Source: a virus. From it: 33,353 nucleotides of DNA. Position 1 is the first letter of the stretch; each line of letters opens with the position of its first letter. The stretch covers positions 1-33,353 of the IMG/VR virus record IMGVR_UViG_3300045988_174038. The stretch is one strand, 5' to 3'. The notes beneath the pieces are model-generated. The model was not told the origin of the DNA. It worked only from the letters and a program-made list of their open reading frames with translations, and did no database searches. Shown one piece after another: positions 3,193-32,980 of this stretch. Made by a program: the position numbers and the translations under genes.

Positions 3193-3371
3193 GTCAAGAA
3201 GTAGCGATAAGGGACGACCGAACAACGGTACGTTCCTATTGCGCTATTCTCCCCTCTTTTGCGCAGTCGCTATGCTTGGCTGACCTTCCTAATGGGCGGT
3301 TTGCGGAGTTCCGTTGAAAAATTCCGCACCTTTACAAATACAGCCCCCCCCCCGTGGGGAGAGGTGATAAT
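3193..3371 (+). promoter_or_regulatory. Structured ~180-nt 5' leader of the packaging/structural operon
   Basis: No convincing ORF. There is a long imperfect hairpin at 3200-3248 (AGTAGCGATAAGGGACGACCG / CGGTACGTTCCTATTGCGCTATT). A second hairpin pairs TGCGGA 3302-3307 with TCCGCA 3323-3328. C10 lies at 3344-3353. UUCUCCCC (3247-3254) is complementary to the SD GGGGAGAG (3356-3363). Confidence 0.5.
3344..3353 (+). repeat. C10 homopolymer in the P2 leader, 2 nt upstream of the SD
   Basis: Counted directly: cag-CCCCCCCCCC-gtggggagagg. Confidence 0.95.
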
Positions 3372-3944
3372 ATGGAACGTAGGCAAAACGATTGGTCGGA
3401 TGTCGAGAAAGATGACGGCAAGAGCAGTGGCAATATTGGGTTGCCATTTGGACTTTGTGAGAAATACGGCATAAAGCTACCCGAAAACGCAACACCCCGT
3501 GTAGCGTGGGATATGTTGAAAGAAAAGCGTGGTATAGAGCCGCCGTGGACGGACGATGGCGCAAAACAGTGGACGGACGGTAAACCCACCGTGCAACAAA
3601 AAGAGCCGCCACAAACGAAACAAACGGCTTACGACGTAATCGAAAATAAAGAGGGACGATACAAAATACACGGCGAGCTAATAACGGCAAAACCGTACAG
3701 TCTTATTGAAAGTTGGATAAGTGTATCGAAACGTGGTTACGGCTATTATTTTGGCATTGATGTCGGCGGAAAAAAATATTTTGTTTCAATTGACTCCAAA
3801 ACGGCAAATGACCGACGTTGGGTTGAGCCGTCGATATTAGGCTATAAAAATATGAAAGTTAGCGCAAACGGATATATATACGTCGACACGAAAGGGTATG
3901 CTAATTTTGTAATAAAAGATTTGAATAATTTTTCAAAAATCTAA
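3372..3944 (+). CDS. Hypothetical protein, 190 aa (first gene of the P2 operon)
   Basis: ATG 3372 lies 7 nt after GGGGAGAGGTG. It is the internal start of track ORF 3354-3944. No family recognised. Confidence 0.75.
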   Translation: MERRQNDWSDVEKDDGKSSGNIGLPFGLCEKYGIKLPENATPRVAWDMLKEKRGIEPPWTDDGAKQWTDGKPTVQQKEPPQTKQTAYDVIENKEGRYKIHGELITAKPYSLIESWISVSKRGYGYYFGIDVGGKKYFVSIDSKTANDRRWVEPSILGYKNMKVSANGYIYVDTKGYANFVIKDLNNFSKI

Positions 3945-3965
3945 AAATAAAAAGTGGGGGAAAAT

Positions 3966-4538
3966 ATGCAAGTTAAAATGCCGACGGCTGAAATGGTTGA
4001 CATTGCGCTATTAAAGCCGTACAAAAAGAACACAAAGCGACACAATCAAACGCAAATAGACAACGTTGCGGAAAGTATCCGCAAATTCGGGTTCGTGCAG
4101 CCGTTTGTTATCGACAAAAACAATGAAGTTGTAATCGGGCATTGTCGGCTGTTGGCGGCGCAAAAACTCGGCATAACGGAATTGCCGTGCGTTCGGGTAG
4201 ATTATCTGACGGCGGCTCAAGTCAAGGCATTGCGTATTTTGGACAACAAGCTCAACGAGAGCGAGTGGGACTTGGACTTTTTGAACGAGGAATTGCCCGA
4301 AATCGATTTGGCAGGGTTTGACGTAGACTTCCCGAACGATATTAGCGGAGTTATGGATACTCTATTAGAGGACGGTTTTTCGCTTGACAAAGACCTAAGG
4401 GGCGGCGATGACGGTACGTTTGAAATCTCGCTTGCAATACCAAATGAATACGATGAACAAGTACACGAGTTCATAAGAAAGAGTGGTAAAGACCCATTGG
4501 TGGCGTGCGTTTTGGAGGCTTGTAAAAATGGCGATTGA
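3966..4538 (+). CDS. ParB-like N-terminal (ParB/Srx nuclease-type) domain protein
   Basis: The segment ..IALLKPYKKNTKRHNQTQIDNVAESIRKFGFVQPFVIDKNNEVVIGHCRLLAAQKLG.. matches the ParB N-terminal domain pattern found in phage ParB-like proteins. Confidence 0.8.
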   Translation: MQVKMPTAEMVDIALLKPYKKNTKRHNQTQIDNVAESIRKFGFVQPFVIDKNNEVVIGHCRLLAAQKLGITELPCVRVDYLTAAQVKALRILDNKLNESEWDLDFLNEELPEIDLAGFDVDFPNDISGVMDTLLEDGFSLDKDLRGGDDGTFEISLAIPNEYDEQVHEFIRKSGKDPLVACVLEACKNGD

Positions 4539-4764
4539 TTGCGGTAGTCAAATTATTTTGTGCGACTTGCCGATACGCTACGATACGTACACAGGTTGCT
4601 CACACGCTTGCGCTTATTGCTTTGTAAAAAAGAAAAGGGATATATCACAAATTGCGGTTGACGCAAGTATCGATACACTTAAAAAGTTCATAAAGGGCGA
4701 AAGGACACAACAGACACGCTGGTGCGATTGGAATATACCTCTTCACTGGGGGGGGGGCAAGTGA
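4528..4764 (+). CDS. Radical SAM (SplB/COG1533-like) protein, N-terminal fragment ending just after the G10 tract
   Basis: ATG 4528. A CxxxCxxC cluster (CSHACAYC) follows ..YDTYTGCSHACAYCF... The ORF ends ..IPLHWGGGK*, one codon after the G10 tract. Confidence 0.8.
   Translation: MAIDCGSQIILCDLPIRYDTYTGCSHACAYCFVKKKRDISQIAVDASIDTLKKFIKGERTQQTRWCDWNIPLHWGGGK
4748..4757 (+). repeat. G10 homopolymer inside the radical SAM gene
   Basis: Counted directly: cact-GGGGGGGGGG-caagtga. Confidence 0.95.
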
Positions 4765-4810: not shown

Positions 4811-5548
4811 TTGCAAATATTCGCTGAAAGTAAATATCCTTTTGTCGTATCAACGAAAGGTAAGCTAATAGCCGATGATGAGTATTTAGCATTGCTTGAT
4901 AAATGCAACTGCGTAGTTCAAATATCGGCGGCTTGCGGTGAGTACGATAAGCTTGAAAAAGGTGCGCCAACATTCGATGAACGAGTTGAAATAATGAGAA
5001 AGGTCGCTCCGCATTGCAAGCGGCTAATCGTCCGTATTCAGCCCTATGTTGTAGAATGTCACAACAGTATTATGATGCAAAGCCTACAAAGGTTTAAGGA
5101 CGCTGGTGTGTACGGTGTAACTGTTGAGGGAATGAAATTCCAAAGAGCAGTCAAGGGCATGGAAAAATGCGCTGGCGATGTCGTGTATCCGATTGCGATA
5201 CTTAGGTCGAGGTTTTCCGAAATCAAAGAAGAGTGCCACCGTTTAGGTTTGGCGTTTTTCTGCGCCGAGAATAGACTACGCTCAATGGGTGATGACCTAT
5301 GTTGTTGTGGAATCGCGGGTCTTGACGGTTTTACAACAAATAAATTCAATTACAATCATATATTCAATGGTGATTTTGAAAAACCCACCGAGAATATGAA
5401 ACAAAAAGGCACAGCACAATTATTTTCGGCACTATTCCAAAATGCAGGAATTGCGGCGGTACTCCGTAATCGTTCGTTCGTAGAAGCGATGTTGAGCAAT
5501 GATACACGCCGTTGCGCCAGCAAAGTCTTTGGGAGAGTGCGTAAATGA
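4811..5548 (+). CDS. Radical SAM protein, C-terminal part in the +1 frame (frame is open and protein-like from the tract at about 4758)
   Basis: The +1 frame reads SDPFQPLEKKARASYRALQIFAESKYPFVVSTKGKLIADD... immediately after the tract. This is the expected continuation of SplB-like radical SAM proteins. Only a TTG (4811) is available as a separate start. Confidence 0.75.
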   Translation: MQIFAESKYPFVVSTKGKLIADDEYLALLDKCNCVVQISAACGEYDKLEKGAPTFDERVEIMRKVAPHCKRLIVRIQPYVVECHNSIMMQSLQRFKDAGVYGVTVEGMKFQRAVKGMEKCAGDVVYPIAILRSRFSEIKEECHRLGLAFFCAENRLRSMGDDLCCCGIAGLDGFTTNKFNYNHIFNGDFEKPTENMKQKGTAQLFSALFQNAGIAAVLRNRSFVEAMLSNDTRRCASKVFGRVRK

Positions 5549-5745: not shown

Positions 5746-6097
5746 CGGGCATACTCCAAAGGAAAAGGCACGGTTCAAACAGCAGTTCGAAACTTTGTGT
5801 TTCTACCAATGCACCGAGGAAGAAATATGTGGGATACTAGACTGTAATCACGAAACGTTGGGAAGATGGTGTAAAGAAATCTATGGATATGGTTTTTCGC
5901 AGATTTACAAGGTAAAACGCCAAGGTGGCAAAGTTTCGTTGCGCAGACAGCAGTTTGAGATAGCGAAAACGAACGCTACAATGTCTATTTGGTTGGGCAA
6001 ACAATACCTCGGACAAACAGACACGCCTGTTGCGGTGGAGCATTCGGCGTTGGATAAGTTGTGCGACACGATAAGTGCGGCTATTAAAGAAGAATGA
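5699..6097 (+). CDS. terS: Terminase small subunit (HTH-type)
   Basis: ATG 5699 follows GGGGAG. The gene lies immediately upstream of, and overlaps, the large terminase. It has an HTH-like ..EEEICGILDCNHETLGRWCK.. and a C-terminal ..MSIWLGKQYLGQTD.. motif common in small terminases. Confidence 0.65.
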   Translation: MPRKPSGMPNGRPPCDGHTPKEKARFKQQFETLCFYQCTEEEICGILDCNHETLGRWCKEIYGYGFSQIYKVKRQGGKVSLRRQQFEIAKTNATMSIWLGKQYLGQTDTPVAVEHSALDKLCDTISAAIKEE

Positions 6098-7419
6098 ATT
6101 TTACGGGTTTAACGGCGAAACAGAAAGATTATTTGCGCAACGGACATCGGCGTTGGAATATACTCACAGGCGCGACAAGAAGTGGCAAGACGGTAGGTAC
6201 GTTCTTTATGTTGCCACTGCGTATCAAGGAGCATTACAACGACCGAATACTATTTATCGGGAAAACGCTAAACACGATTGACCGCAACATCTTTGACCCA
6301 TTGAGGGAACTGTACGGTTATGACAACATCGGAAAGATAGTCGGCAATCGAGAGATAACGATGTTCGGCAAGAAGTGCTACGTAGTTGGCGCAAATGACG
6401 ACCGTGCTATTACGAAGATACAAGGTGTCGGCATCGGTTACGCATATGGCGACGAGCTAACGACGTGGACGGAAAACTTTTTCCAAATGTTGAAAAGCCG
6501 TCTCGACTTGCCGAACAGCAAATTCGACGGAACGTGCAACCCCGAAAGTCCGAGTCACTTTATCAAGAAACACCTCGACAACAAAGAGTTGGATATTTAT
6601 CAAAGTCATTTTACAATTTACGACAACCCGTTTTTGTCGCCCGAGTTTGTGCGGAATTTGGAGAACGAATACCGCAACACAATTTACTTTGACAAATGGA
6701 TATTGGGCAAGTGGGTAGCTAACGAGGGACTTGTATATCCGCTATTTAGGCGTGAGCGTCACTTTATGACGCCTGCGGAGTTTTCGGCGAAGTTCGGGCG
6801 GTTGCTTATTAAGTACGTGATTTGGGGCGGAGACGGTGCGACTACAAACGACAGTACGGCGATAATACCGCTAGCTATTCTCGAAAACGGAATAGGCGTA
6901 ACGTTGGAGCCGTTCTACCACAACCCACAAACAAACGGTCCGTTGTCAAATGCGCAGTTGATGCCGTACATTGAAGAATACCTTGCCGAAATGGAAGACA
7001 AGTACCACTTCGATAGTAACGGCGTGTTGCACTATATGCCTGTTGACTGTGCGGCGGCAGACCTCGTGTTGACGTTGAGTTACAATCTAGGCGAGAAGTA
7101 CAACGCCACAGCTTACACGAAAAAGAACATACAGTTGACAACGGATGTGGTGAATAACGCATTCGGACGTAACGCCCTATACATTCTAAATTACGGCGGT
7201 TACTACAACTATATTCGACATAGATTTGAACGAGTAGAACATCCGCTAGTGATTGACCTTGAAAGTATGGTTTGGGACAAGCACAACAAAGGGTACGACG
7301 ATAGCGTGCCGAACGATTGCGCCGATGCGTTTCGTTATGCCGTGAACACGTACTACGCAAACCCCGACAGCTTGTGGGAAACACCAAATGCGGAAGAATA
7401 CTACAAGATAGGAGATTGA
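6094..7419 (+). CDS. terL: Terminase large subunit (PBSX/Terminase_3-like)
   Basis: 441 aa. Walker A GATRSGKT lies near the N-terminus. Size and position (terS upstream, portal downstream) fit. Confidence 0.9.
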   Translation: MNFTGLTAKQKDYLRNGHRRWNILTGATRSGKTVGTFFMLPLRIKEHYNDRILFIGKTLNTIDRNIFDPLRELYGYDNIGKIVGNREITMFGKKCYVVGANDDRAITKIQGVGIGYAYGDELTTWTENFFQMLKSRLDLPNSKFDGTCNPESPSHFIKKHLDNKELDIYQSHFTIYDNPFLSPEFVRNLENEYRNTIYFDKWILGKWVANEGLVYPLFRRERHFMTPAEFSAKFGRLLIKYVIWGGDGATTNDSTAIIPLAILENGIGVTLEPFYHNPQTNGPLSNAQLMPYIEEYLAEMEDKYHFDSNGVLHYMPVDCAAADLVLTLSYNLGEKYNATAYTKKNIQLTTDVVNNAFGRNALYILNYGGYYNYIRHRFERVEHPLVIDLESMVWDKHNKGYDDSVPNDCADAFRYAVNTYYANPDSLWETPNAEEYYKIGD

Positions 7420-7422
7420 GCG

Positions 7423-9039
7423 ATGGCTGATTTTCAAGACGTAAATGTCGACGGACTTGCGCCATTTCAAAACGGAGCAGCTTTTAACACGTATTGGACG
7501 TACAATCCGAGTACGAAGCAGGCGTTTTGGGCGCAGTTGTCAAGCCGATATACATACTTTGGGATGCGGTACTTGCAACATTGGTTGTATTGGTACGACG
7601 GTTGGGTGCCGTATTTCCACAATTCAAACAATGGAATATTCAGCACCAAGCTTGCGCAAAGCCTTGTAAACCGTATTTCGGATAAAGTCTATGGCGGAAA
7701 GCTGATGTTCAAAAACGCAGGTGCGGAACAGTGCAAACACGAGCCTAACGAAGCGTTGCGCACCGTGAGCAAGTGGGCGGAACACAACTTTTGTGAAGCT
7801 TTTCATCGGGCGATACTATACGCAGGTGCAGGCGGTACGGCACTGATAAAGGCAAACCGTGACAAGCGAGGACTGTGGACGGAAGCGTTGCGAGTGGATA
7901 GTTTTATCCCCACCGTAGATTTTAGGGGAAACGTTATTCGTGTAGAGTGTTTCCTAACACAATACGCCGACTTGCAACAAAACGAGAACGGCAAGAAAGC
8001 CGAGAATTATTATCTCGTAGAAGAACGGTATTTCGGCGACATCGAAACGGAACACGTTGTTTTGCACAACAGACCGTTGGTGCGCTATTCAATCAAGAAA
8101 GCGAGCGGGGTGGTTGGAACAGGTGGCGATGTAACAAGCGTGAGTACCGAAACTGTGCTGTTTGGGCGTTTGCCGAAACAAGTGCGTAGAGCATTGTTGA
8201 AAAATTACAATGCGCTGATATTCGATGTTCCGCAGTTGCTACCGTTTCACGATTGGCTGGGTGTAGAACTTGTCAAGTGGACAACGAACGTGAGCGACTT
8301 GCCGATGTTGCCTTTTGGTGAAAGTTTGCTTGCACCGATAATTTCGCAGTTGATGGCGTACGACTACTATTTCAGTGCGTTTGCGACCGATATGTACACG
8401 GGGCGTGCCAAAGTGCTTATGCCAAGCAATATGATTGACCCCGTAAAGGCGAAAGAAACGCAGAATTACAACTCGAATTTCGACAGCTTTTTGTACAAGA
8501 GATATCCGAGCCGAAACCCCGAGAGCGAAAAGCCGATACCGTTGCAGTTTGATTTGCGCGCCACCGATTGGAAAACAATTCGTGACACGATACTCGAAAA
8601 CATTGCCGTCAGTTTGGGCGTTAATACATCAACGATTGCAGGCTTTTTGGGCGACAACAACGCAAGAACGGCAAGAGAAATTTCGACCGAAGAAAACGAA
8701 ACCGCAGGTTACATCAACAACAAGCGCAACATTTTGGGAATGTCGGCAAACCGATACTTAAAACACATAACCGAGTATTTGGGATATGCCGATACCGTAG
8801 ATGTGCGTTGGAGTCGTGCAGGGTTGACGAATATGCAAAGCCTTGCCGAGATACTCAACATCGGTTTGCAGTCGGGGTTCATAAGCAAGCGCAAAGCGGT
8901 TGAAATGTTCAACCTTGACGACGACGTAATGCAAGTAGAAGAAGAATACAACGCCATACGAGCGGACGATGCGGTTCGGGAAAGCAACGAGTACGCAGGG
9001 TTCGGGGCGTTTGGCGGTGACGAGAGGTTGCCTAAATGA
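7423..9039 (+). CDS. Portal protein
   Basis: 538 aa, directly after terL and before the Mu-F-like head protein. The call rests on synteny and size; no diagnostic motif was read. Confidence 0.75.
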   Translation: MADFQDVNVDGLAPFQNGAAFNTYWTYNPSTKQAFWAQLSSRYTYFGMRYLQHWLYWYDGWVPYFHNSNNGIFSTKLAQSLVNRISDKVYGGKLMFKNAGAEQCKHEPNEALRTVSKWAEHNFCEAFHRAILYAGAGGTALIKANRDKRGLWTEALRVDSFIPTVDFRGNVIRVECFLTQYADLQQNENGKKAENYYLVEERYFGDIETEHVVLHNRPLVRYSIKKASGVVGTGGDVTSVSTETVLFGRLPKQVRRALLKNYNALIFDVPQLLPFHDWLGVELVKWTTNVSDLPMLPFGESLLAPIISQLMAYDYYFSAFATDMYTGRAKVLMPSNMIDPVKAKETQNYNSNFDSFLYKRYPSRNPESEKPIPLQFDLRATDWKTIRDTILENIAVSLGVNTSTIAGFLGDNNARTAREISTEENETAGYINNKRNILGMSANRYLKHITEYLGYADTVDVRWSRAGLTNMQSLAEILNIGLQSGFISKRKAVEMFNLDDDVMQVEEEYNAIRADDAVRESNEYAGFGAFGGDERLPK

Positions 9040-17178: not shown

Positions 17179-19944
17179 ATGCAATCAAACAGAATTGTGG
17201 TAATGCTTGCCGCCGACGGCGTGAACGGACTTGACATCAGCTACGGCAAGAACATCAACACAATGTATCTCAACTCGCACCTAAACAGCGAGTTTGTGGT
17301 GCGCCCTGCATTTTTGTTGGGGGCGTCGGAAACGATGTGGGTAACGTTCAGCAAGGGCGAAACATCCACACGTCCGCTACTGTTGGCACAACGTCAAACA
17401 AACGACAGCAACAATAGCCGTCAAGTTGTGGACGGTACGGAAAGTACAATTGAAAAGATACCCAACACGGGATACGAGTACTTTATCGATATGCCCGATG
17501 TCGTGTTGCAAAACGTCGGCGAGTGGAGTTTTTCGATAACGATTACCGAGTTGCCTGTGGACGTGGAATACAAAGGACAAGTGAACGCTACGAGCGATTT
17601 GCCGTCGAGCGGAAACGCCGTCGGCGATACCTATTGGGTCGGCGGTTCTGTAAACTCGTACTACTATTGGAACGGCTCGGCGTGGGCGGTGCTTAACATC
17701 GTCGCCGTGTCTACATCCGATGTCGGTACAATTACGGTAAATCGGAGCGTGGGCGGACAAATCGGCGGATATGCCACCGACCTTGACATCCAAGTGCTGT
17801 ACAATTTCGTGTTGCGAGTGCTGAATAGATTGTCTGACTATTTGCCGAAAATTGTTGACGGCTATTGGTGGGTTTGGAACAGCGACAGCAAAGCGTATGT
17901 CAACTCGGGCGAAGTGGCGACATCGTTGATAACGTTGCGTGCGATAACAGGACTTACAAAAGTACCGACCATAAACGACACCATTACGAGTAGAGCGGCA
18001 ACATTTAACCGTGTACCGCAAATAGGCGAAACCTACGTGTCCCTTGCAAGTACCTCTAATGCACTCGGTGGCGATACGTATATTTGCCTAATGAAGTACA
18101 CATCCGAAAACACGTCGACCTATATGTATGTTGGCAACACTCGTGGCGCAAAGGGCGAAAAAGGCGATACGGGCGCACAAGGTCAAAAGGGCGATACAGG
18201 CGCAACGGGCGTGGGCATTGCGAACGTAAAGCAAGAAGTCGTGACAGGCGGCACAAAGGTTACAATCACGTTGACGAACGGCACAAGTAGTTCATTTATT
18301 GTGTATAACGGCACTGCGGATAACATCACCAACTTGGAGTTTCCGCACGGTGACGCAGTAGTCACGTATGATAATGTAGACGGACTGCACATACACGGCA
18401 ATTGCCGAATTACGCTTAACGGCGTTAACGTTGATGTACCTATGGATGTCGAGATACCGCAAACGGCGGGCGACGGCTTGACCGAGGACGCAACGGACGA
18501 CGCAAAAGGTGCGGTATTGAAAGTCGACGAAACAGTAATACGCACTAACAAGGCAAATCAAATCATCAACGGAAACGTTACAATCGGCGGCAACGTGACA
18601 GTCAACGGCACGGTCACGAGCGTGAGTGCCGAAAATTTGAAAGTAAAGAACAAACTAATAGTAGTTGCCGAGGGTAACACGGTCACGCTGACAAGTCCCG
18701 CAGGTTTGCTCGCTCCGAAGTACGACGGCACGAACCACGGCGCATTGGTATTTGACGGTACGGGTACGGCGTATGTCGGTGACGTGGTGTTGGACAGCAA
18801 CGGCGATATTGATGTGTCGAAGTCCGACTTGCAACCGCTCGTAACACGCGGCACGCTCGCTGACGGCAAGTTGGTGAAATGGAACGCCGCAAAATTGCGT
18901 CTGGAAGATACAGGTATAGCCGCCGACCAAGTGGCGACGAAAGCCGACCTCGGCGCAACGAGTAACTTCATTTACAAGTTAAACTATGAAAGCGCAACAA
19001 TACCGACAATCGGGCAAGTATTGACGTTGACAAATGCGAATTTTAGCCGCACTCCCGTTGTGGGCGACGTTTTTGCGCTTATGGAAGTTGTAAACGTCAA
19101 CGATACTTACTACAACAATATGGAAGTATTGACCGTTGGCGAAACGACTTGCACGGCGAAAATAATGTCATTCACGGACATCACGAGTTGCAAGGTGACA
19201 AAGGTTACTACGGCTACCACCACGAAGCAAGCCTATGTAAAGAACGCCGACGGCACGCAAGGAATGGTAGACATCAATAATAATGCGACTGCTCAAAGTA
19301 TTGTCTTACGTGATAATGCTGGTAGAATATACGTCACAGCTGGCGCAGAAGAGGGACAGGCTGTAAACGTCAAACAAATGAGCAGTGCTATTGCGACGGC
19401 AATGGAAGTAGGCACAAGTGGGCTTGAACGCACGGACAACAAGGTAGGTTCGATTACGGGCGAGGGCGATGATGTACAATATCCGTCCACCAAAGCCGTG
19501 GTAGATTACGTTAAAGCCAACGCACCGACGGCATACCACGTTGATTTGAGCGGTGATAGCGGTACAATCACTACTGACCAATACAATGCTCTAAAAGCTG
19601 ACAATGATAGCTACATTTTGCATACGGTAGGTGTTGCTGTTATGAGGCTTGCAAGGGCAGTAAAAGTTGAAGCACAAAGTGGTAGTTTGCAATATCAAAA
19701 GTTTATCGGTGGTACTGCAAGAACTATTAAAATAGAACCGTCGGGTGCTTGGACGAAGACTGAGACCACATATCAGTCAACAAGTAAACTTACAACAACC
19801 TTGTCGTCGAGTTCCACCAATACTCAATATCCAAGTGCAAAAGCAACGTACGATGCCGACCAAGCAACACTGACAGCGGCAAAGAGTTATGCGGACACAG
19901 CAATCACAAACGCAATCACAACGGCGTTGAACACCCCTGTGTAA
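17179..19944 (+). CDS. Tail fibre protein with a collagen-like segment, 921 aa
   Basis: G-X-Y repeats GAKGEKGDTGAQGQKGDTGATG. Recurrent ..QYPS.KA..DY.. motifs (DDVQYPSTKAVVDYVKAN, TNTQYPSAKATYDAD) are common in phage fibre proteins. Confidence 0.8.
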   Translation: MQSNRIVVMLAADGVNGLDISYGKNINTMYLNSHLNSEFVVRPAFLLGASETMWVTFSKGETSTRPLLLAQRQTNDSNNSRQVVDGTESTIEKIPNTGYEYFIDMPDVVLQNVGEWSFSITITELPVDVEYKGQVNATSDLPSSGNAVGDTYWVGGSVNSYYYWNGSAWAVLNIVAVSTSDVGTITVNRSVGGQIGGYATDLDIQVLYNFVLRVLNRLSDYLPKIVDGYWWVWNSDSKAYVNSGEVATSLITLRAITGLTKVPTINDTITSRAATFNRVPQIGETYVSLASTSNALGGDTYICLMKYTSENTSTYMYVGNTRGAKGEKGDTGAQGQKGDTGATGVGIANVKQEVVTGGTKVTITLTNGTSSSFIVYNGTADNITNLEFPHGDAVVTYDNVDGLHIHGNCRITLNGVNVDVPMDVEIPQTAGDGLTEDATDDAKGAVLKVDETVIRTNKANQIINGNVTIGGNVTVNGTVTSVSAENLKVKNKLIVVAEGNTVTLTSPAGLLAPKYDGTNHGALVFDGTGTAYVGDVVLDSNGDIDVSKSDLQPLVTRGTLADGKLVKWNAAKLRLEDTGIAADQVATKADLGATSNFIYKLNYESATIPTIGQVLTLTNANFSRTPVVGDVFALMEVVNVNDTYYNNMEVLTVGETTCTAKIMSFTDITSCKVTKVTTATTTKQAYVKNADGTQGMVDINNNATAQSIVLRDNAGRIYVTAGAEEGQAVNVKQMSSAIATAMEVGTSGLERTDNKVGSITGEGDDVQYPSTKAVVDYVKANAPTAYHVDLSGDSGTITTDQYNALKADNDSYILHTVGVAVMRLARAVKVEAQSGSLQYQKFIGGTARTIKIEPSGAWTKTETTYQSTSKLTTTLSSSSTNTQYPSAKATYDADQATLTAAKSYADTAITNAITTALNTPV
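18145..18216 (+). repeat. Collagen-like G-X-Y repeat coding segment
   Basis: Seven consecutive GXY triplets read in frame (ggc gca aag ggc gaa aaa ggc gat acg ...). Confidence 0.9.
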
Positions 19945-19956
19945 AGGAGATAGATT

Positions 19957-20508
19957 ATGGCGAAAAACAATAATTTAACGGACTTCCTAACCGATGTAGC
20001 CGACGCTATTCGGGAAAAGGACGGCACGACAGGGACGATTAACCCACAAGATTTCAGCGACAAAATCAAGGCGATACAAACAGGCTTGGACACGTCTGAC
20101 GGCAACATCGAGCCTACAACAGTGTTGAAAGGCTACAAAGGCTACGCAAAAGGTGTGGCTGTTGATGGTGCGATTGAAACGTATGACGGGACGGTGGAGG
20201 ATGTTGGGTTTACCGTAACAATGAATTTCAGCGGTCCAACAGTGACCAATATGGGTTTTTACAGTTTGGACGCAGGTAGTACTTGGATAGATTTATTTGC
20301 CACCGAGCAAACGCAATTAGTATTGAACAATGTCAAACAAATAATGTTCAAGGCACAAGGCGACTATTCCCATTATATATCTATAAGTGGGGATGGTTTC
20401 AGCAGTTTGTATATTAACGGTTCTGTCGGACCAAGTACTACGGAGCAAACACCGAATATTACTCTTACGCAAAATATGGTTGTTGACATTGGTACAGGCA
20501 GTGATTAA
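19957..20508 (+). CDS. Tail fibre/RBP-associated protein, 183 aa
   Basis: The N-terminus MAKNNNLTDFLTDVADAIREKDGTTGTINPQDFSDKIKAI is a recurrent N-terminal motif of fibre proteins in Gram-positive phages (from my recollection, not searched). Confidence 0.6.
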   Translation: MAKNNNLTDFLTDVADAIREKDGTTGTINPQDFSDKIKAIQTGLDTSDGNIEPTTVLKGYKGYAKGVAVDGAIETYDGTVEDVGFTVTMNFSGPTVTNMGFYSLDAGSTWIDLFATEQTQLVLNNVKQIMFKAQGDYSHYISISGDGFSSLYINGSVGPSTTEQTPNITLTQNMVVDIGTGSD

Positions 20509-20581
20509 AAAGAAATGATACACTTTAATTACCCAATCCCCGTCCGCAGGTGGCAAGGCGGTCACTCTTTAAGGAGTAGAT

Positions 20582-21760
20582 ATGAACGAAATAAAAATCT
20601 TATCCGACAGGATAATCATAGATGGTCACGCTGATACACGAGAGCAATGCGAAACTGCAACAATGTTGGCAAATCTATTGTCAGCACAAGGCAGTGGTTT
20701 TAATTGCGTTGAGTATCGAAGTGGCTATGCCGAGTTTAAGAAAAGCGATGTTGTCAAGTTGGCTGATAGTGAGTTGAAGTTTGTTAGTGGTGAACCTGTT
20801 AGCTATAAAACAATATATGTAAATGGTAATAGGGTCGAAATTTCAGACACTATGGGCAATACTTGGCAAGAGCTTGAAACCTATAATAGCCAATATAGAA
20901 TTGAAGGTAATACCGTAGTTTGGAGGAGTGATGACACAATTTTGCAATACAACGGTGTTGATGTATTACCAACCGATACCATTGTAGCGAACAGACAATA
21001 CACAACTCGCTCGTCATTCGACGGCAAAATCAACATCACAAAATCAGCAGGCGTTGTCCTCAAAACGCAAGGTAAGTATTGCGACAAAGACATAACTGTT
21101 GTACCCGTACTTGAAGAAAAGAGCGTAACCCCGACTGAAAGCGCACAAGAGATTGTACCGAGTGACGGAAACTGCGGTATTAGCAAAGTAACCGTCGGAG
21201 CGGTACAAACTGAAACAAAAACGATAACTCCGACTACAAATCAACAGACGTTCACTCCTACAAGTGGCAAGTACTTCAAGCAAGTCATTTGTCAAGCAAT
21301 ACAAGCCTACCAAGGCACGGCAACACCCGCACAAGGTGAACAGACAATCACCCCGACAAGCGGTAAGTTTTTCAGTTCGTTCAAAGTAGGTGCAATACCG
21401 AGTGACTATGTAATACCGAGTGGTACATTGCAAATCACGGCTAACGGCGCAAAGGACGTTACAAACTACAAGAATGTCAACGTAAATGTAGAGCCGAATT
21501 TGGAGCAAAAGACTGTGACAATCACCGAAAATGGTACGACCGAAGTTACCCCTACAACGGGCAAGGACGGTATGAGCAAAGTCACTGTAACGACAAATGT
21601 CCCGACGGCAAGTGCTGTTGAAGAGGTTGCGACAGCAAGTGCAATGAACGCATTGTTGGTAGAAGCTAATGTTGGCAAGTACTACAAGTTTACAGGCACG
21701 ACCGATAGCAACTACACCAACGGCGACCTTTACCTTGTTGAGGGGGGGGGCAGTGAGTAG
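20582..21760 (+). CDS. Fibre/receptor-binding protein A, upstream ORF (392 aa) ending just after the G9 tract
   Basis: Shares an N-terminal block with RBP B (GNTVVWRSDDTILQYNGVDVLPTDTIVANRQYTTRS). It has tandem ~30-aa T/P/Q-rich repeats (..TPT..Q...P.SGK.F..V.V.AI..). It ends ..GDLYLVEGGGSE*. Confidence 0.8.
   Translation: MNEIKILSDRIIIDGHADTREQCETATMLANLLSAQGSGFNCVEYRSGYAEFKKSDVVKLADSELKFVSGEPVSYKTIYVNGNRVEISDTMGNTWQELETYNSQYRIEGNTVVWRSDDTILQYNGVDVLPTDTIVANRQYTTRSSFDGKINITKSAGVVLKTQGKYCDKDITVVPVLEEKSVTPTESAQEIVPSDGNCGISKVTVGAVQTETKTITPTTNQQTFTPTSGKYFKQVICQAIQAYQGTATPAQGEQTITPTSGKFFSSFKVGAIPSDYVIPSGTLQITANGAKDVTNYKNVNVNVEPNLEQKTVTITENGTTEVTPTTGKDGMSKVTVTTNVPTASAVEEVATASAMNALLVEANVGKYYKFTGTTDSNYTNGDLYLVEGGGSE
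21742..21750 (+). repeat. G9 homopolymer at the domain junction of RBP A
   Basis: Counted directly: ttga-GGGGGGGGG-cagtgagtag. Confidence 0.95.
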
Positions 21761-22115
21761 TGGATATACGGTAAGTTATATTTTGAGCGGTGGAATGGGC
21801 GGTGCGTTAATTCCTATGTTTGTTTACAATGGTAAGAAATACGGCTACAATTCCACTAAATATCCTAACGGAGATAATAAATTTTATAAAGACGATGTAG
21901 TTGTATCTGCCGAAGAATATAGTGGTTCATATGCTATAATTGGCGAATTAAACATTCCAAGTGTACCAACAACAATTACGTGGGGATACAATGACACTTT
22001 GCAATATGCCAATAAAACAGGAGATATAACTATAACAAATGGAACATCGGGGAAACTTGACGGTACTATAATTGTTAATGGAAATGGTAGTTTCGAGATA
22101 AAAGGTACCGACTAA
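21753..22115 (+). CDS. RBP A distal domain ORF in the +1 frame (about 120 aa; frame open from 21669)
   Basis: The +1 frame reads ..GGAVSSGYTVSYILSGGMGGALIPMFVYNGKKYGYN...FEIKGTD*. A GTG at 21753 is the only nearby start. Deleting one G fuses it to 20582-21760 (510 aa). Confidence 0.6.
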   Translation: MSSGYTVSYILSGGMGGALIPMFVYNGKKYGYNSTKYPNGDNKFYKDDVVVSAEEYSGSYAIIGELNIPSVPTTITWGYNDTLQYANKTGDITITNGTSGKLDGTIIVNGNGSFEIKGTD

Positions 22116-22166
22116 TACACAGCATAAACCTTATCGGGTAGGCGGTCAAACCCGTTAGGAGAAACT

Positions 22167-22856
22167 ATGTGGAAACATAAAAACTTTATAAATTTGCAGT
22201 TGTGTGCTGGACCTATACCGTTCCCAATAGTAGTAAACGGTACAGATGTTTATATCCAAAGGCTTAGTGATAGTGGGGAAACTGGCGAGGAAACTTGGAG
22301 TTATAATGCAAGTATAAATACGGACATTTATTCAATTTCGGGCAATACTGTTGTTTGGAGTGACGGAACTATTTTGCAATATAATAGCATTGATGTTTTA
22401 CCTACTGACAATATTATTGTTGATGGTGAATACACAACTCGTACTGCCTCAACCCTCAAATTCAAACACCTCACTGACGCAGGCACTATCGGCAGTGGGA
22501 CGGTTAAGTTTAGACACTACTCGCAACAGGGGCTTAGTACGGGCGAAACGTGGGTGTTGAATAGTACTATAACAGCTCCAAGTAGTAGTATTGACAAAAA
22601 TATCGATTTTCTTTGTGTAGGTACGTCACAAAACTTCATACGTATACTGATAGAAAGCGAAGGTAGAGGTGTACATCTGGAATATTTTGCACAAGGTGAT
22701 AGTTCCACAGCAGGTACTGTTGTATCGACTGGCGGCACAGCAGTCGCTACTGAATATCGCACGCTTACGTTCGATAGTCCTGTAACCGACACGGCGTTGT
22801 TGACTTGGCTACAAGCTAACGGAACAAAGCAAGGTGGGGGGGGGGCAAGTAATTAA
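22167..22856 (+). CDS. Fibre/receptor-binding protein B, upstream ORF (229 aa) ending just after the G10 tract
   Basis: The paralogous block GNTVVWSDGTILQYNSIDVLPTDNIIVDGEYTTRT. It ends ..LLTWLQANGTKQGGGGASN*. Confidence 0.75.
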   Translation: MWKHKNFINLQLCAGPIPFPIVVNGTDVYIQRLSDSGETGEETWSYNASINTDIYSISGNTVVWSDGTILQYNSIDVLPTDNIIVDGEYTTRTASTLKFKHLTDAGTIGSGTVKFRHYSQQGLSTGETWVLNSTITAPSSSIDKNIDFLCVGTSQNFIRILIESEGRGVHLEYFAQGDSSTAGTVVSTGGTAVATEYRTLTFDSPVTDTALLTWLQANGTKQGGGGASN

Positions 22857-23211
22857 AGCAGGGACGTATCAGTTTATTGAAGACATAAATTTTCCAACTG
22901 GTATAGATATAACTGAAAAAATAACTGCTACTATAAATACTTTGACAGAGAATGATGTTTACGGTAGTCAAAAAACCATTGATACAATCGTGGTAGCGCA
23001 GTCGGGTGATGCAGGTGCTTTATCATTATTTAATGAAGAACCGTATTATGGTATAACACACGCATTTGACTGGGAATATACTACCGAAAATGGTGATACG
23101 TTTTATGTTACTGACACAGCAAAACTACGAACAATAATAATCGCTACTGACCAAACAGTAACTAACGAATTGTATCAGTGGTTCACTGCCAACACAACAA
23201 AACTCTCATAA
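22834..23211 (+). CDS. RBP B distal domain ORF in the +1 frame (125 aa from GTG 22834)
   Basis: Reads (GGG)QVIKAGTYQFIEDINFPTG...LRTIIIATDQTVTNELYQWFTANTTKLS*. There is no SD upstream of the GTG. Deleting one G fuses it to 22167-22856 (347 aa). Confidence 0.6.
   Translation: MGGGQVIKAGTYQFIEDINFPTGIDITEKITATINTLTENDVYGSQKTIDTIVVAQSGDAGALSLFNEEPYYGITHAFDWEYTTENGDTFYVTDTAKLRTIIIATDQTVTNELYQWFTANTTKLS
22836..22845 (+). repeat. G10 homopolymer at the domain junction of RBP B
   Basis: Counted directly: aaggt-GGGGGGGGGG-caagtaattaa. Confidence 0.95.
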
Positions 23212-23224
23212 AGGAGACAAGCAA

Positions 23225-23497
23225 ATGCGTAAAGGCTTTACCCTTGTAGAGCTCATTGTAGTAATCGCACTCATAAGCTTATTGACAGCTTCTGTATTTG
23301 CGTGGTACAACGAGTTCAAGGACAAACAAATTGTAGACACCAACGGCGACGGACTTGTGTACTACGACGACATCACGTTGCCAAAACCGCCGAACTATCG
23401 GGAAATTTTGAAACAATACGGTATCGACGTCGGGGAATTGACCGACGAGGAATTGAATGAACTTATAAAGGAGTTGCAAAATGGAACAAGTGATTGA
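23225..23497 (+). CDS. Prepilin-type N-terminal cleavage/methylation-motif protein, 90 aa (pilin or pseudopilin-like)
   Basis: MRKG/FTLVELIVVIALISLL matches the type IV pilin class signal: a short basic leader, Gly at -1, Phe at +1, Glu at +5 and a hydrophobic helix. RBS AAAGGAG. Confidence 0.7.
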   Translation: MRKGFTLVELIVVIALISLLTASVFAWYNEFKDKQIVDTNGDGLVYYDDITLPKPPNYREILKQYGIDVGELTDEELNELIKELQNGTSD

Positions 23498-23717
23498 ATG
23501 GTTTGACGTGGCAAAGGACGAATGCGAAACATTGCGTGATTATGCCGAGAAATTGGACAAGGTGGACGAAAAGGACAACTTGCGTGAGATTATGGGCGAC
23601 GAAGTAAATCACGCTCTAATTGCGATTGTGGCGGCGTGTAGGCTGTTGGAGCTGAAAGTGCCGACGGACAATTTGGAGGGCATTGACGAAATATTCGAGG
23701 GGGGCGGCGAAGAATGA
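23481..23717 (+). CDS. Hypothetical acidic protein, 78 aa
   Basis: Track ORF with ATG 23481 after AAGGAG. No family recognised. Confidence 0.6.
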   Translation: MEQVIEWFDVAKDECETLRDYAEKLDKVDEKDNLREIMGDEVNHALIAIVAACRLLELKVPTDNLEGIDEIFEGGGEE

Positions 23718-31043: not shown

Positions 31044-31063
31044 GTTACCTATGCGAGGTGAAA

Positions 31064-31783
31064 ATGGAACAACAAAGAGAATTTAAGGGAGTTTGGATAG
31101 ATAGGGTAATATGGCTCGATGAAAGGTTGAGCGCATTGGACAAGTGTATCTTTGCCGAAATAGACAGCTACTCATTAAACGAAAAAGGGTGTTATGCAAC
31201 AAACAAATACCTTGCGGAGTTTTGCCAATGTAGTGAAAGTCAAATATCAAAGAGTGTTTCAAAGCTAATAAAATACGGCTACTTGCAATGTTTATCTTTT
31301 GACGGTCGACAACGAGTTTTGCAAAGCAGAGTAGTAAATTTTACAAGGCAGGGTAGTAAATTTTACGAGGCAGACTGGCAAAATTTAGGACAAACTAACA
31401 AAATAGATAAACAAAATAAAAAAGAAAGTATATATATAGGTCAAGTTGCGGAAATTATTGCGTATTTGAACGACAAGTTGCATACAAAGTACTCGGCGAA
31501 ATCAGCGGCTAATGTCAGACTAATAATGGCAAGGCTGAAAGACGGATATACGGTGACGGACTTCAAAACGGTAATTGACAAGAAATACAGCGAGTGGAAT
31601 GGAACGGAATTTGCGGCGTACTTGCGTCCTCAAACGTTATTCGGAACAAAATTCGACAGTTACCTAAATGCTCCGATACGCAAGAAAACGCAAAGCAAGA
31701 CAAATGCGGTCGGTGGCGTAGAGATAGAACGGCGACAATACAGCGACGACGAAATGAACGGACTGTTTACCGACCTAGATTAA
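31064..31783 (+). CDS. Replisome organiser / replication initiator (N-terminal HTH + conserved phage C-terminal domain, Phg_2220_C-like)
   Basis: The C-terminal IIAYLNDKLHTKYSAKSAANVRLIMARLKDGYTVTDFKTVIDKKYSEWNGTEFAAYLRPQTLFGTKFDSYLN matches the conserved phage replication-protein C-terminus. The N-terminus has a DnaD/HTH-like segment. Confidence 0.85.
   Translation: MEQQREFKGVWIDRVIWLDERLSALDKCIFAEIDSYSLNEKGCYATNKYLAEFCQCSESQISKSVSKLIKYGYLQCLSFDGRQRVLQSRVVNFTRQGSKFYEADWQNLGQTNKIDKQNKKESIYIGQVAEIIAYLNDKLHTKYSAKSAANVRLIMARLKDGYTVTDFKTVIDKKYSEWNGTEFAAYLRPQTLFGTKFDSYLNAPIRKKTQSKTNAVGGVEIERRQYSDDEMNGLFTDLD
31327..31392 (+). repeat. Iterons: two 22-bp tandem repeats (20/22 identical) plus a degenerate third, followed by an AT-rich tract (31393-31440); candidate origin
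   Basis: cagagtagtaaattttacaagg (31327-31348), cagggtagtaaattttacgagg (31349-31370), cagactggcaaaatttaggaca (31371-31392). Then comes aactaacaaaatagataaacaaaataaaaaagaaagtatatatata. Confidence 0.65.
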
Positions 31784-31793
31784 AAGGAGTTTT

Positions 31794-32120
31794 ATGGATA
31801 GAAAAATATTCTATGCGCCGTCAACGATAAAAGCATTGTGCGAAAAGTTGATTGGGCGACTTAGCGAGTACGAAATTTTAGACATCGAAGAAGGTCTGAC
31901 CCGAATGGCGATAGGTGCTATTGAAAAGAAAGAAATATGTCTAAGAATGAGTGATTTCGTCCATCGAAATGCGAGAACCTTTTTCGTGAGTTTGGAATGG
32001 GACATTTGCGAAAATTACGATTATTATGTTATCGGTGGAGAAGTGCGAGAACTAACGATAACAAAAGACGGAAGAGTTAAAAATGAACAACTTTGTCAAG
32101 TTGGGTATCTGAGAAAATAA
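31794..32120 (+). CDS. Hypothetical protein, 108 aa
   Basis: ATG 31794 follows AAAGGAG. No family recognised. Confidence 0.65.
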   Translation: MDRKIFYAPSTIKALCEKLIGRLSEYEILDIEEGLTRMAIGAIEKKEICLRMSDFVHRNARTFFVSLEWDICENYDYYVIGGEVRELTITKDGRVKNEQLCQVGYLRK

Positions 32121-32134
32121 GAGAAGGTGATACT

Positions 32135-32980
32135 ATGTATGAACAACAGGGTTTGTGGGGCGAAACGGACTTAGAATTTGCCGAGCGCACTGCAATTGAA
32201 TTGATAAAGACGTTTGAACCCGTAGCATTGCAACGTTGTCCGGGACACGGCTACATCGTGGGTTACAGCGGTGGTAAAGACAGTGATTGCTTGGTAGACT
32301 TGTTTATCCGTAGCGGAGTAAAGTTTACTGTGATACATAACCACACAACGCTAGACATACCCGATACGGTGCGTTACGTCCGCAAACGTTTTGCAGAGTG
32401 GACTGCACAAGGTATTCCGTGCGAGGTACATAAGCCGAAAGAAAGCTTTTGGCAAATCTGCATACGCAAGAAAATGTTGCCGTTTCGCACTCGTCGCTTT
32501 TGTTGCGAGGAACTCAAAGAGTATCAACCCTACCCATTTGCCGTGTATTCGTTTGGCGTAAGACGAGCGGAAAGCAACGGTCGGGCGCAAAGACGAAACA
32601 ACATCGAAACACGCAACACAAAGAAGTACAGCGACGTTCAGCTTTTCCACTTTGACAAGTCGGAAGAAGTCCGCAACACCGATATGTGCTACACGAACAA
32701 GTACTTTATCGTCAACCCAATGGCGCAGTGGTCTACGGCTGTACGGGATAAGTACATCGCCAAGTATAACCTTGAAATCAATCCGATTTACGAAAAGTAC
32801 GGACTTGACCGTTGCGGTTGCATTATGTGCCCAATGTCAAGCGACAAAGAACGGCGCAGAGAAGCAGAGATGTCTCCGAACTATGTCAAAACGTTCAAGT
32901 GGTGTTGCGACAAGATAGCGGAACAACGGGACAATGTGGAAAGCGGCGAACAGCTATTTGACGATTATTTGCATTGGTGA
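32135..32980 (+). CDS. PAPS reductase-family PP-loop protein (DndC/IbrA-like)
   Basis: ..GYIVGYSGGKDSDCLVDL.. is the PP-loop SGGKDS motif of the PAPS reductase/ATP-pyrophosphatase family. A C-terminal Cys cluster ..DRCGCIMCPM.. and ..KWCCDK.. is present. Confidence 0.85.
   Translation: MYEQQGLWGETDLEFAERTAIELIKTFEPVALQRCPGHGYIVGYSGGKDSDCLVDLFIRSGVKFTVIHNHTTLDIPDTVRYVRKRFAEWTAQGIPCEVHKPKESFWQICIRKKMLPFRTRRFCCEELKEYQPYPFAVYSFGVRRAESNGRAQRRNNIETRNTKKYSDVQLFHFDKSEEVRNTDMCYTNKYFIVNPMAQWSTAVRDKYIAKYNLEINPIYEKYGLDRCGCIMCPMSSDKERRREAEMSPNYVKTFKWCCDKIAEQRDNVESGEQLFDDYLHW

Follow-up and report, generated by a model that had tools for sequence, protein, structure and literature searches.

Why should a phage gene lying just 3' of a tail fibre gene carry a run of ten guanines, past which its coding potential continues in another reading frame? 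The gene in question, here termed cassette B, occupies positions 22167-23211 of IMG/VR virus record IMGVR_UViG_3300045988_174038, whose 33,353 nucleotides (the window, i.e. the whole stretch of DNA analysed) are a phage genome segment with every gene on the + strand, and the G10 tract lies at 22836-22845. In this study, we propose that the tract is a contingency locus, at which slippage at the DNA level would make the attachment of a distal domain, D2, phase-variable, and we put the probability of this reading at roughly 0.68. The original prediction, made from the DNA letters, had treated the tract as something found in a single gene; it is real there, and the gene is an example of an architecture that extends through the clade.

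Cassette B begins with a Shine-Dalgarno-like AGGAG (22157-22161) and an ATG at 22167-22169, and the G10 tract stands within continuous coding potential that runs from 22167 to 23211. The sequence at the tract reads ...ACA AAG CAA GGT, then G10, then CAAGTAATTAAAGCAGGGACGTAT / CAAGTAATTAAAGCAGGG; GGT and the homopolymer together (22833-22845) are presumed to be length-variable and give a Gly linker when in frame. As assembled, the first open reading frame (ORF; 22167-22856) encodes 229 amino acids with the C-terminal end ...WLQANGTKQGGGGASN, and the +1 frame reads through the tract without a stop and ends in ...LYQWFTANTTKLS at 23211. One G fewer (G9) yields a 347-amino-acid fusion with the junction ...ANGTKQGGGGQVIKAGTYQF... 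/ ...KQGGGGQVIKAGTYQF..., G12 also fuses both ORFs (348 amino acids), and G8 or G11 gives a product ending in ...GGGK*. The fused form is recognized by the junction peptide QGGGGQVIK / ...ANGTKQGGGGQVIKAGTYQFIEDINFPTGIDITEK and the truncated form by its end ...QGGGGASN, and GGTGGAGGTGGC is the in-frame sequence for a locked version of the junction. Both alternative frames of the linker DNA CAAGTAATTAA contain TAA, the two stops overlapping at 22850-22856 (TAA 22854-22856 in the assembled frame, ..ASN*; TAA 22850-22852 in the third frame, ..GK*). Thus the frame translations bear out what had been predicted, namely that the tract separates two ORFs, that it encodes a Gly linker between two domains (from the G9 reading and from fused relatives), and that the assembled state makes the first part only, the second being appended by the loss of one G.

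The D2 coding region (22846-23211; QVIKAGTYQF...WFTANTTKLS* in the +1 frame) is predicted to be expressed only as a fusion, with G9 or G12. Alternatively, D2 might be translated alone as a small protein, with the G run mimicking a Shine-Dalgarno sequence, as a G-rich run lies 6 nucleotides 5' of an in-frame ATT (22852) and gene callers annotate a 125-amino-acid ORF from GTG 22834. However, no ATG and thus no Met is found in the whole frame, the GTG that is its first possible start overlaps the tract with zero spacing and no spaced Shine-Dalgarno sequence, and ATT is a very weak start which is not kept as a start in relatives. In homologues D2 makes up the C-terminal portion of a fused protein, and the free form would be without the N-terminal attachment domain. 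A scan for promoters and terminators between the two ORFs gave no signal above chance. Independent translation of D2, against which the original prediction had already argued, is thus hardly credible.

Related genomes carry the same junction at other tract lengths and in other frames. Among the homologues, which comprise 384 matches from a search with the fused cassette B protein, the predicted junction exists in two fused proteins with G9 in frame, P0002 of L014 (342 amino acids; caaggtG9caagtaattaag, reading KQGGGGQVIKAGTY) and P0013 of L074 (373 amino acids), and L073 (P0003) is in frame with G10 and an altered 3' flank. The gene is out of frame in L075 and L076 (G7) and in L078 (G11), which read ..(G)ASN* or ..GSN*, as well as in L077 (G8), which reads ..GK*; L002 and L006 have G7 at the orthologous site. 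Taken together, G7, G8, G9, G10 and G11 were found in DNA at the orthologous junction, protein tails imply up to G13, and all three frames were seen, so that relatives differ in tract length, and with it the gene passes from one frame to another. At the protein level, many homologues continue KQGGGG(Q/E/R/A)VIKAGTY... to ...WFTANTTKLS* (P0002, P0003, P0013, P0034, P0053, P0066, P0092 and P0095), others end in the off-frame readings GGGASN*, GGGGASN*, GGGGGASN*, GGGGGSN*, GGGK* or GGGGGK*, and in some a different domain follows KQ-Gn (VTEHTL..., TLINFTINGTAYQAEEG..., IVELPSYDNWTATKV... or TTAHTLTWSD...). There are also homologues with a linker without Gly, such as KQESAPIKAGTY in P0056, or which stop after KQ. 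In the close relative L001 the linker KQGGGGGG is encoded by interrupted codons (GGTGGAGGTGGTGGGGGG), which are unable to slip as easily.

The same organization was found across 416 kb of related loci, drawn from IMG/VR, from metagenomes of the human gut and from the contigs that carry individual homologues. Coding-strand G runs in this set are bimodal in length (95 of G5, 9 of G6, 11 of G7, 8 of G8, 17 of G9, 11 of G10, 2 of G11 and 2 of G12), and C runs of at least 7 number only 7. Counting distinct junction tracts with an ORF of at least 80 codons upstream (n = 35), 13 are in frame, 12 are fused by one additional G and 10 by one G fewer, and a downstream ORF of at least 40 codons is kept at every one of the 35. 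Programmed ribosomal frameshift, as in dnaX or the tail assembly chaperone G/GT, has a fixed direction of shift, and near-equal thirds with 13 of 35 junctions already in frame and opposite corrections among the others therefore do not fit it; nor do occasional errors of assembly readily account for them. Both unproductive frames reach a stop at a median of 2 codons past the tract (90% within 6), compared with a median of 8 codons (44% within 6) at off-frame positions inside the same downstream ORFs, which were taken as the control (Mann-Whitney p = 7e-21, a value that is generous because homologous junction sequences are not fully independent). These early off-frame stops hold across several unrelated downstream domains.

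Is D2 still a working domain where it is out of frame? Between diverged homologues, with the out-of-frame genomes (the window, L075 and L077) included, the ratio of nonsynonymous to synonymous substitution rates (dN/dS) of D2 is 0.15-0.35, and between L074 (in frame) and L075 (out of frame) it is 0.21 at a synonymous divergence (dS) of 0.28; no internal stops were found in D2 of the compared homologues. Judged from these substitution patterns, purifying selection acts on D2 even where the genome has it out of frame. It could be argued that the frameshift has inactivated the distal domain and left D2 as a pseudogene remnant in this lineage, and the closest pair, the window and L073, with 14 differing sites and a dN/dS of about 0.9, is compatible with relaxed constraint. 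However, D2 has 121 codons without a stop and is modelled with high confidence (predicted local distance difference test, pLDDT, of 97 with AlphaFold2), and downstream ORFs are intact at 22 of 22 out-of-frame junctions, though dS exceeds 1 between lineages. Moreover, the differences between the window and L073 are concentrated in a single loop (residues 66-83), the pattern expected of a binding surface, and their numbers are too small to tell relaxed from diversifying selection. Decay of D2 is therefore very unlikely.

The original prediction went further and took the two halves for a duplicated domain, of which one part stands and the other does not. The truncated product ends with D1 (amino acids 125-222, GETWVLN...LLTWLQANGTKQ; 22539-22832), which according to the AlphaFold2 model and the alignment of its family is beta-rich with a helix at the end and forms the distal end in the assembled (OFF) state. 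Both halves indeed finish with the same motif pattern. Pairwise BLASTP of the D1 half against the D2 half recovered the terminal motif only (E = 1.4, 11 of 29 identities), whereas comparison by hhalign of the family profiles A1 (D1, 28 sequences) and A2 (D2, 15 sequences) gave a probability of 76-78% with E of about 2e-5 over the last 28 columns only, aligning YRTITF..LLTWLQANGTK with KLRTIII..ELYxWFTANTTK. The shared terminal motif, weak in pairwise comparison, is thus credible only at the level of sequence profiles. A forced global alignment of the two profiles was collinear and weak (probability 27%), so no whole-domain similarity was seen, and no DNA repeat between the D1 and D2 halves was found in 19900-23600.

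The AlphaFold2 model of the fused protein has a pLDDT of 83 overall (above 90 for residues 21-90), that of D2 alone (22846-23208) a pLDDT of 96.9 and a predicted template-modelling score of 0.88, and both domains show the same element order, i.e. a first strand, beta strands, an RT(I/L) strand, a helix and a last strand. Searches of the fused model with Foldseek against PDB returned only non-significant tandem-galectin-like rows (best E 0.03, template-modelling score below 0.2), those against BFVD only uncharacterised gut-virus proteins, and a sequence profile search of PDB found nothing. When D2 was searched by itself, Foldseek gave no PDB neighbour (best E 0.34), and the modelled D2 fold may be one without a solved representative. 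On these models, D1 and D2 probably share a distant common fold type. They belong to different, separately widespread families, and the same terminal signature also closes other domain types in related phages; D1 and D2 are members of a broad fibre-module family with a common C-terminal element rather than a local tandem duplication. Further, 12 of 42 distinct D1-type ...W(L/F)xxNxTKQ junctions have a natural protein end right after ...NGTKQ, so a fibre ending in D1 is a normal architecture. Judging by these homologues the truncated form is plausibly functional, and the most likely effect of the switch is to exchange one usable tip for another, not to silence the gene.

Based on these observations, the following mechanism is proposed. 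Slipped-strand mispairing while the phage DNA is replicated would lengthen or shorten the G run, whose position coincides exactly with the linker that joins two domains of a tail-fibre-associated protein, a presumed host-receptor binder. At G9 or G12 the tract would be read as Gly codons, giving a protein of 347-348 amino acids composed of an anchor domain, D1, a Gly4-5 linker and D2, while at other lengths a stop 1-3 codons past the tract would leave a protein ending with D1 (229 amino acids as assembled). The N-terminal domain (about amino acids 1-95; 22167-22451) is presumed to be the virion-attachment part; it is homologous to part of the neighbouring fibre-associated gene, cassette A (44% identity, BLASTP E 7e-17), and an 85-nucleotide DNA repeat with 72% identity joins 20925-21009 in cassette A with 22357-22441 in cassette B. 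A phage population would then hold particles with fibre tip D1 or D2, and with the second tract, that of cassette A, at least four fibre states could arise, the outcome being bet-hedging for adsorption and host range.

Several observations weigh against this mechanism or are neutral towards it. The receptor-binding role of the cassette B product is presumed from position and modularity, namely a gene just 3' of the 921-amino-acid tail fibre, an N-terminal domain common to its neighbour and mosaic distal domains; no family was matched in Pfam or PHROGs by either cassette protein, split or fused, and no structural neighbour in PDB. The few near-identical genome pairs have equal tracts (G7 in cassette B of both L075 and L076; G9 in both L042 and L049), and no near-isogenic pair with different tract lengths and both flanks at least 90% identical was found. 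The one G10-versus-G7 pair, cassette A of L075 and L076, may reflect recombination instead of slippage because its left flank is diverged. Identical out-of-frame proteins recur (P0001 in 3 contigs, P0058 in 13), therefore the majority tract length can be stable. All three coding tracts of the window need the same correction (-1G), and the out-of-frame direction is concordant in 5 of the 6 genomes with at least two such tracts (the window, L018, L027, L038, L048 and L077; chance about 0.07). Such concordance, be its cause technical or biological, leaves room for sample-specific homopolymer miscalling or for slippage at the RNA level.

Homopolymer miscalling in sequencing or assembly would mean that the true tract is G9 and that cassette B encodes an ordinary two-domain fusion with no switch. 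G10 is an error-prone context, the coverage of the contig is only about 11x, and the same -1G change repairs every coding tract of the window, including one within a radical-SAM domain. However, the same 229-amino-acid product is on record from several sources, in 3 contigs, and two thirds of the 35 junctions are out of frame, in both directions and in many samples and assemblers. The stops conserved right after the tract in both alternative frames make sense only if those frames are read, and even if this contig were wrong, the tract would stay a member of a variable family. Miscalling is thus considered quite improbable as an explanation. Poly-G read artefacts of the NextSeq type were also considered and rejected, since the tracts are short, lie at conserved codon positions and recur in independent assemblies.

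Transcript slippage is best documented on A/T runs, whereas the tract here is a G run. Recoding at the level of RNA or the ribosome would leave the DNA stably at G10, with the fusion made by RNA-polymerase stuttering or by +1 ribosomal slippage on GGG codons, which a long homopolymer in the mRNA could permit. Were such recoding efficient, the frame in the genome would be close to neutral, and this too would lead to the distribution in thirds; the recurrence of identical out-of-frame alleles in several contigs and the concordant direction within genomes agree with recoding. On the other hand, the frames needed differ among relatives, with no single programmed direction of shift and no conserved slippery heptamer with a stimulator, and tract lengths vary from 7 to 13 between relatives at the DNA level. 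We therefore regard recoding as unlikely, and DNA-level phase variation remains our preferred reading of the G10 tract.

The tracts also coincide with points of domain exchange between genes and between phages, in two cases that do not amount to a statistical test. In the first, the D1 module of the window (22531-22832) matches, at about 95% DNA identity, the module that comes after the G12 tract in cassette A of L014. The similarity begins exactly at the L014 tract, with none upstream of CAGGGGCTT in the window, and ends at AAGCAA|G10 in the window versus AAACAA|TAA in L014. By this alignment D1 is a shuffled module, present in a different gene of a related phage, and the G4 in CAGGGGCTT (22529-22532) at its left edge, where L014 has G12 at the equivalent place, seems to be what is left of a poly-G junction that has decayed. 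In the second, L075 and L076, which derive from different samples, are identical over 3.27 kb downstream of the cassette A tract and 14% divergent in the 260 nucleotides upstream, and their tracts, G10 (L075 2192-2201) and G7 (L076 351-357), are both in frame, a pattern that suggests a recombination breakpoint at the tract. It is tentatively proposed that in this clade of human-gut phages poly-G runs act as universal joints, providing a reversible frame switch for the distal domain together with a short common sequence for module recombination from one fibre gene or phage to another, although we lean against it at present. If so, phase variation and module exchange would share one sequence element, and the Gly-linker reading and the off-frame stops would be adaptations making that element harmless in every state.

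Long homopolymers of G or C occur in the window much more often than chance would give. Besides 12 runs of G5 and one of G6, only G9 (21742), G10 (4748) and G10 (22836) occur, plus one C10 (3344), so that 4 tracts of at least 9 were seen versus an expectation of 0.05 under dinucleotide shuffling, and a count of 4 was attained in 0 of 100 shuffles. The G9 tract (21742-21750) belongs to the sister cassette A on the + strand (20582-22115), whose ORF at 20582-21760 is followed by a +1 ORF to 22115; G8 or G11 fuses the two into 510 amino acids, adding a 121-amino-acid distal domain. This tract comes after ...GDLYLVE, and the linker DNA GCAGTGAGTAG has TGA and TAG in the other two frames. In relatives, the ...GDLYLVE junction carries G12, G10, G8 or G7 in frame and G9 or G7 out of frame, and at least four different domains follow it. 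The third coding tract, G10 at 4748-4757, splits a radical-SAM gene into ORFs 4483-4764 and 4811-5548, so the tracts are not restricted to fibre genes. With G9 the product would have 354 amino acids and a Pfam Radical_SAM match spanning the tract (score 32.6 versus a gathering threshold of 29.5), whereas the N-terminal fragment scores 18.8, under the threshold, when taken alone. The C10 run (3344-3353) lies in a 5' leader, 8 nucleotides ahead of a GGAGAGG Shine-Dalgarno sequence with ATG at 3372; its pairing with the G-rich Shine-Dalgarno sequence downstream was considered and rejected, the fold being no more stable than shuffles (z = 0.61).

The window encodes a terminase (6094-7419), a portal protein (7423-9039), a minor head protein and the 921-amino-acid tail fibre with collagen-like repeats (17179-19944, with PHROG tail-fibre matches), 3' of which stand the two fibre-associated genes, cassette A (from 20582) and then cassette B (from 22167). 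The terminase has distant relatives only (less than 40% identity), nearly all of them in phages of Gram-positive hosts, and the same contig is on record as the ENA human-gut assembly ERZ1748977 (NODE_221) and as "MAG TPA: Caudoviricetes sp.". The DNA of the fibre region had no match among GenBank phages. In IMG/VR, an exact flank search did not find the window, and a degenerate pattern found two contigs only, both already in the comparison set. Directly 3' of cassette B, at 23225-23497, a 90-amino-acid protein carries a prepilin-type N-terminal methylation motif (PF07963, E 3e-7) and keeps this position in L001, L014, L073, L075 and L078, which is unusual for a phage structural module. Elsewhere in the window, a ParB_N protein (3954-4538) adjoins the split radical-SAM gene, and a PAPS-reductase-domain protein (E 2e-17; 32093-32980) lies near a Phg_2220_C/HTH replication-type protein (31058-31783); together these genes may point to a DNA-modification function.

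If confirmed, tracts placed at domain linkers would constitute a design by which one genome yields fibres with different tips. Because gene callers split such genes, gut viromes contain wrongly annotated fibre proteins, and for phages of this kind a host range predicted from a consensus assembly would not be reliable. A simple handle to find or engineer swappable receptor-binding modules is also offered by the junction rule (...NGTKQ-Gn-... and ...GDLYLVE-Gn-...).

In bacteria such as Campylobacter, Neisseria and Haemophilus, phase variation at poly-G/C tracts is known, slipped-strand mispairing switching the frame of surface-interaction genes. Bacterial phase-variable genes usually switch a whole enzyme or adhesin, whereas here the C-terminal module of a virion protein would be added or removed. 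Alternative distal fibre domains from one genome are also known from Gin inversion in Mu, Cin inversion in P1 and the retroelement of Bordetella phage BPP-1; unlike inversion or diversity-generating retroelements, the mechanism proposed here is a change in homopolymer length. Within 19900-23600, a search for an invertible segment or a diversity-generating retroelement found only chance-level inverted repeats of 14-19 nucleotides and no long direct repeat or template/variable repeat pair. A reverse-transcriptase (RVT_1) gene is present just upstream of the fibre cassettes in L078 (1-517), the contig that carries P0058, and it may be part of a diversity-generating retroelement that works alongside the poly-G tracts.

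A recent proposal is that contingency loci are general in phages, and poly-G tracts have been noted in a methylase gene of BPP-1 and in a PB1-like baseplate gene (bioRxiv 10.1101/2025.10.21.683753; PMC10579305). The loci described by Gomez, Barrick and Waters resemble ours in being homopolymers with reversible frameshift by polymerase slippage and a bet-hedging role; unlike ours, theirs are runs of at least 6 in T2/T4-type coliphages and are under-represented in tail fibres (bioRxiv 10.1101/2025.10.21.683753), whereas in this clade it is in fibre genes, at domain junctions, that long G runs are gathered. The closest parallel is Campylobacter Fletchervirus, for which the citing papers describe poly-G tracts of 7-11 bases in receptor-binding proteins, producing a diversity which is reported to let a subpopulation infect receptor-negative hosts (bioRxiv 10.1101/2025.10.21.683753; PMC10579305). 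As in Fletchervirus according to those papers (Sorensen et al. 2021, Cell Rep 35:109214), where length changes create subpopulations with different fibres, the present phages have coding G tracts in fibre or receptor-binding genes, several per genome, whose length shifts the frame. Unlike it, the lineage here consists of uncultured human-gut Caudoviricetes with a terminase resembling that of Gram-positive-host phages; its tracts stand at inter-domain linkers, are read as Gly when in frame and toggle the distal domain only, leaving a truncated form that looks functional, and their positions agree with the borders of domain shuffling, each alternative frame having a stop after the tract. As Fletchervirus is represented here through citing papers, the differences in linkers, stops and borders may be smaller than they appear. 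Our literature search found no report of poly-G fibres in gut phages, and confirmation would extend poly-G fibre phase variation from Campylobacter phages to widespread uncultured phages of the human gut. The element and the switch logic are thus already known, and the present system differs from known ones in its lineage, in the placement of tracts at linkers, in the toggling of a distal module, in its off-frame stops and in the link to module exchange.

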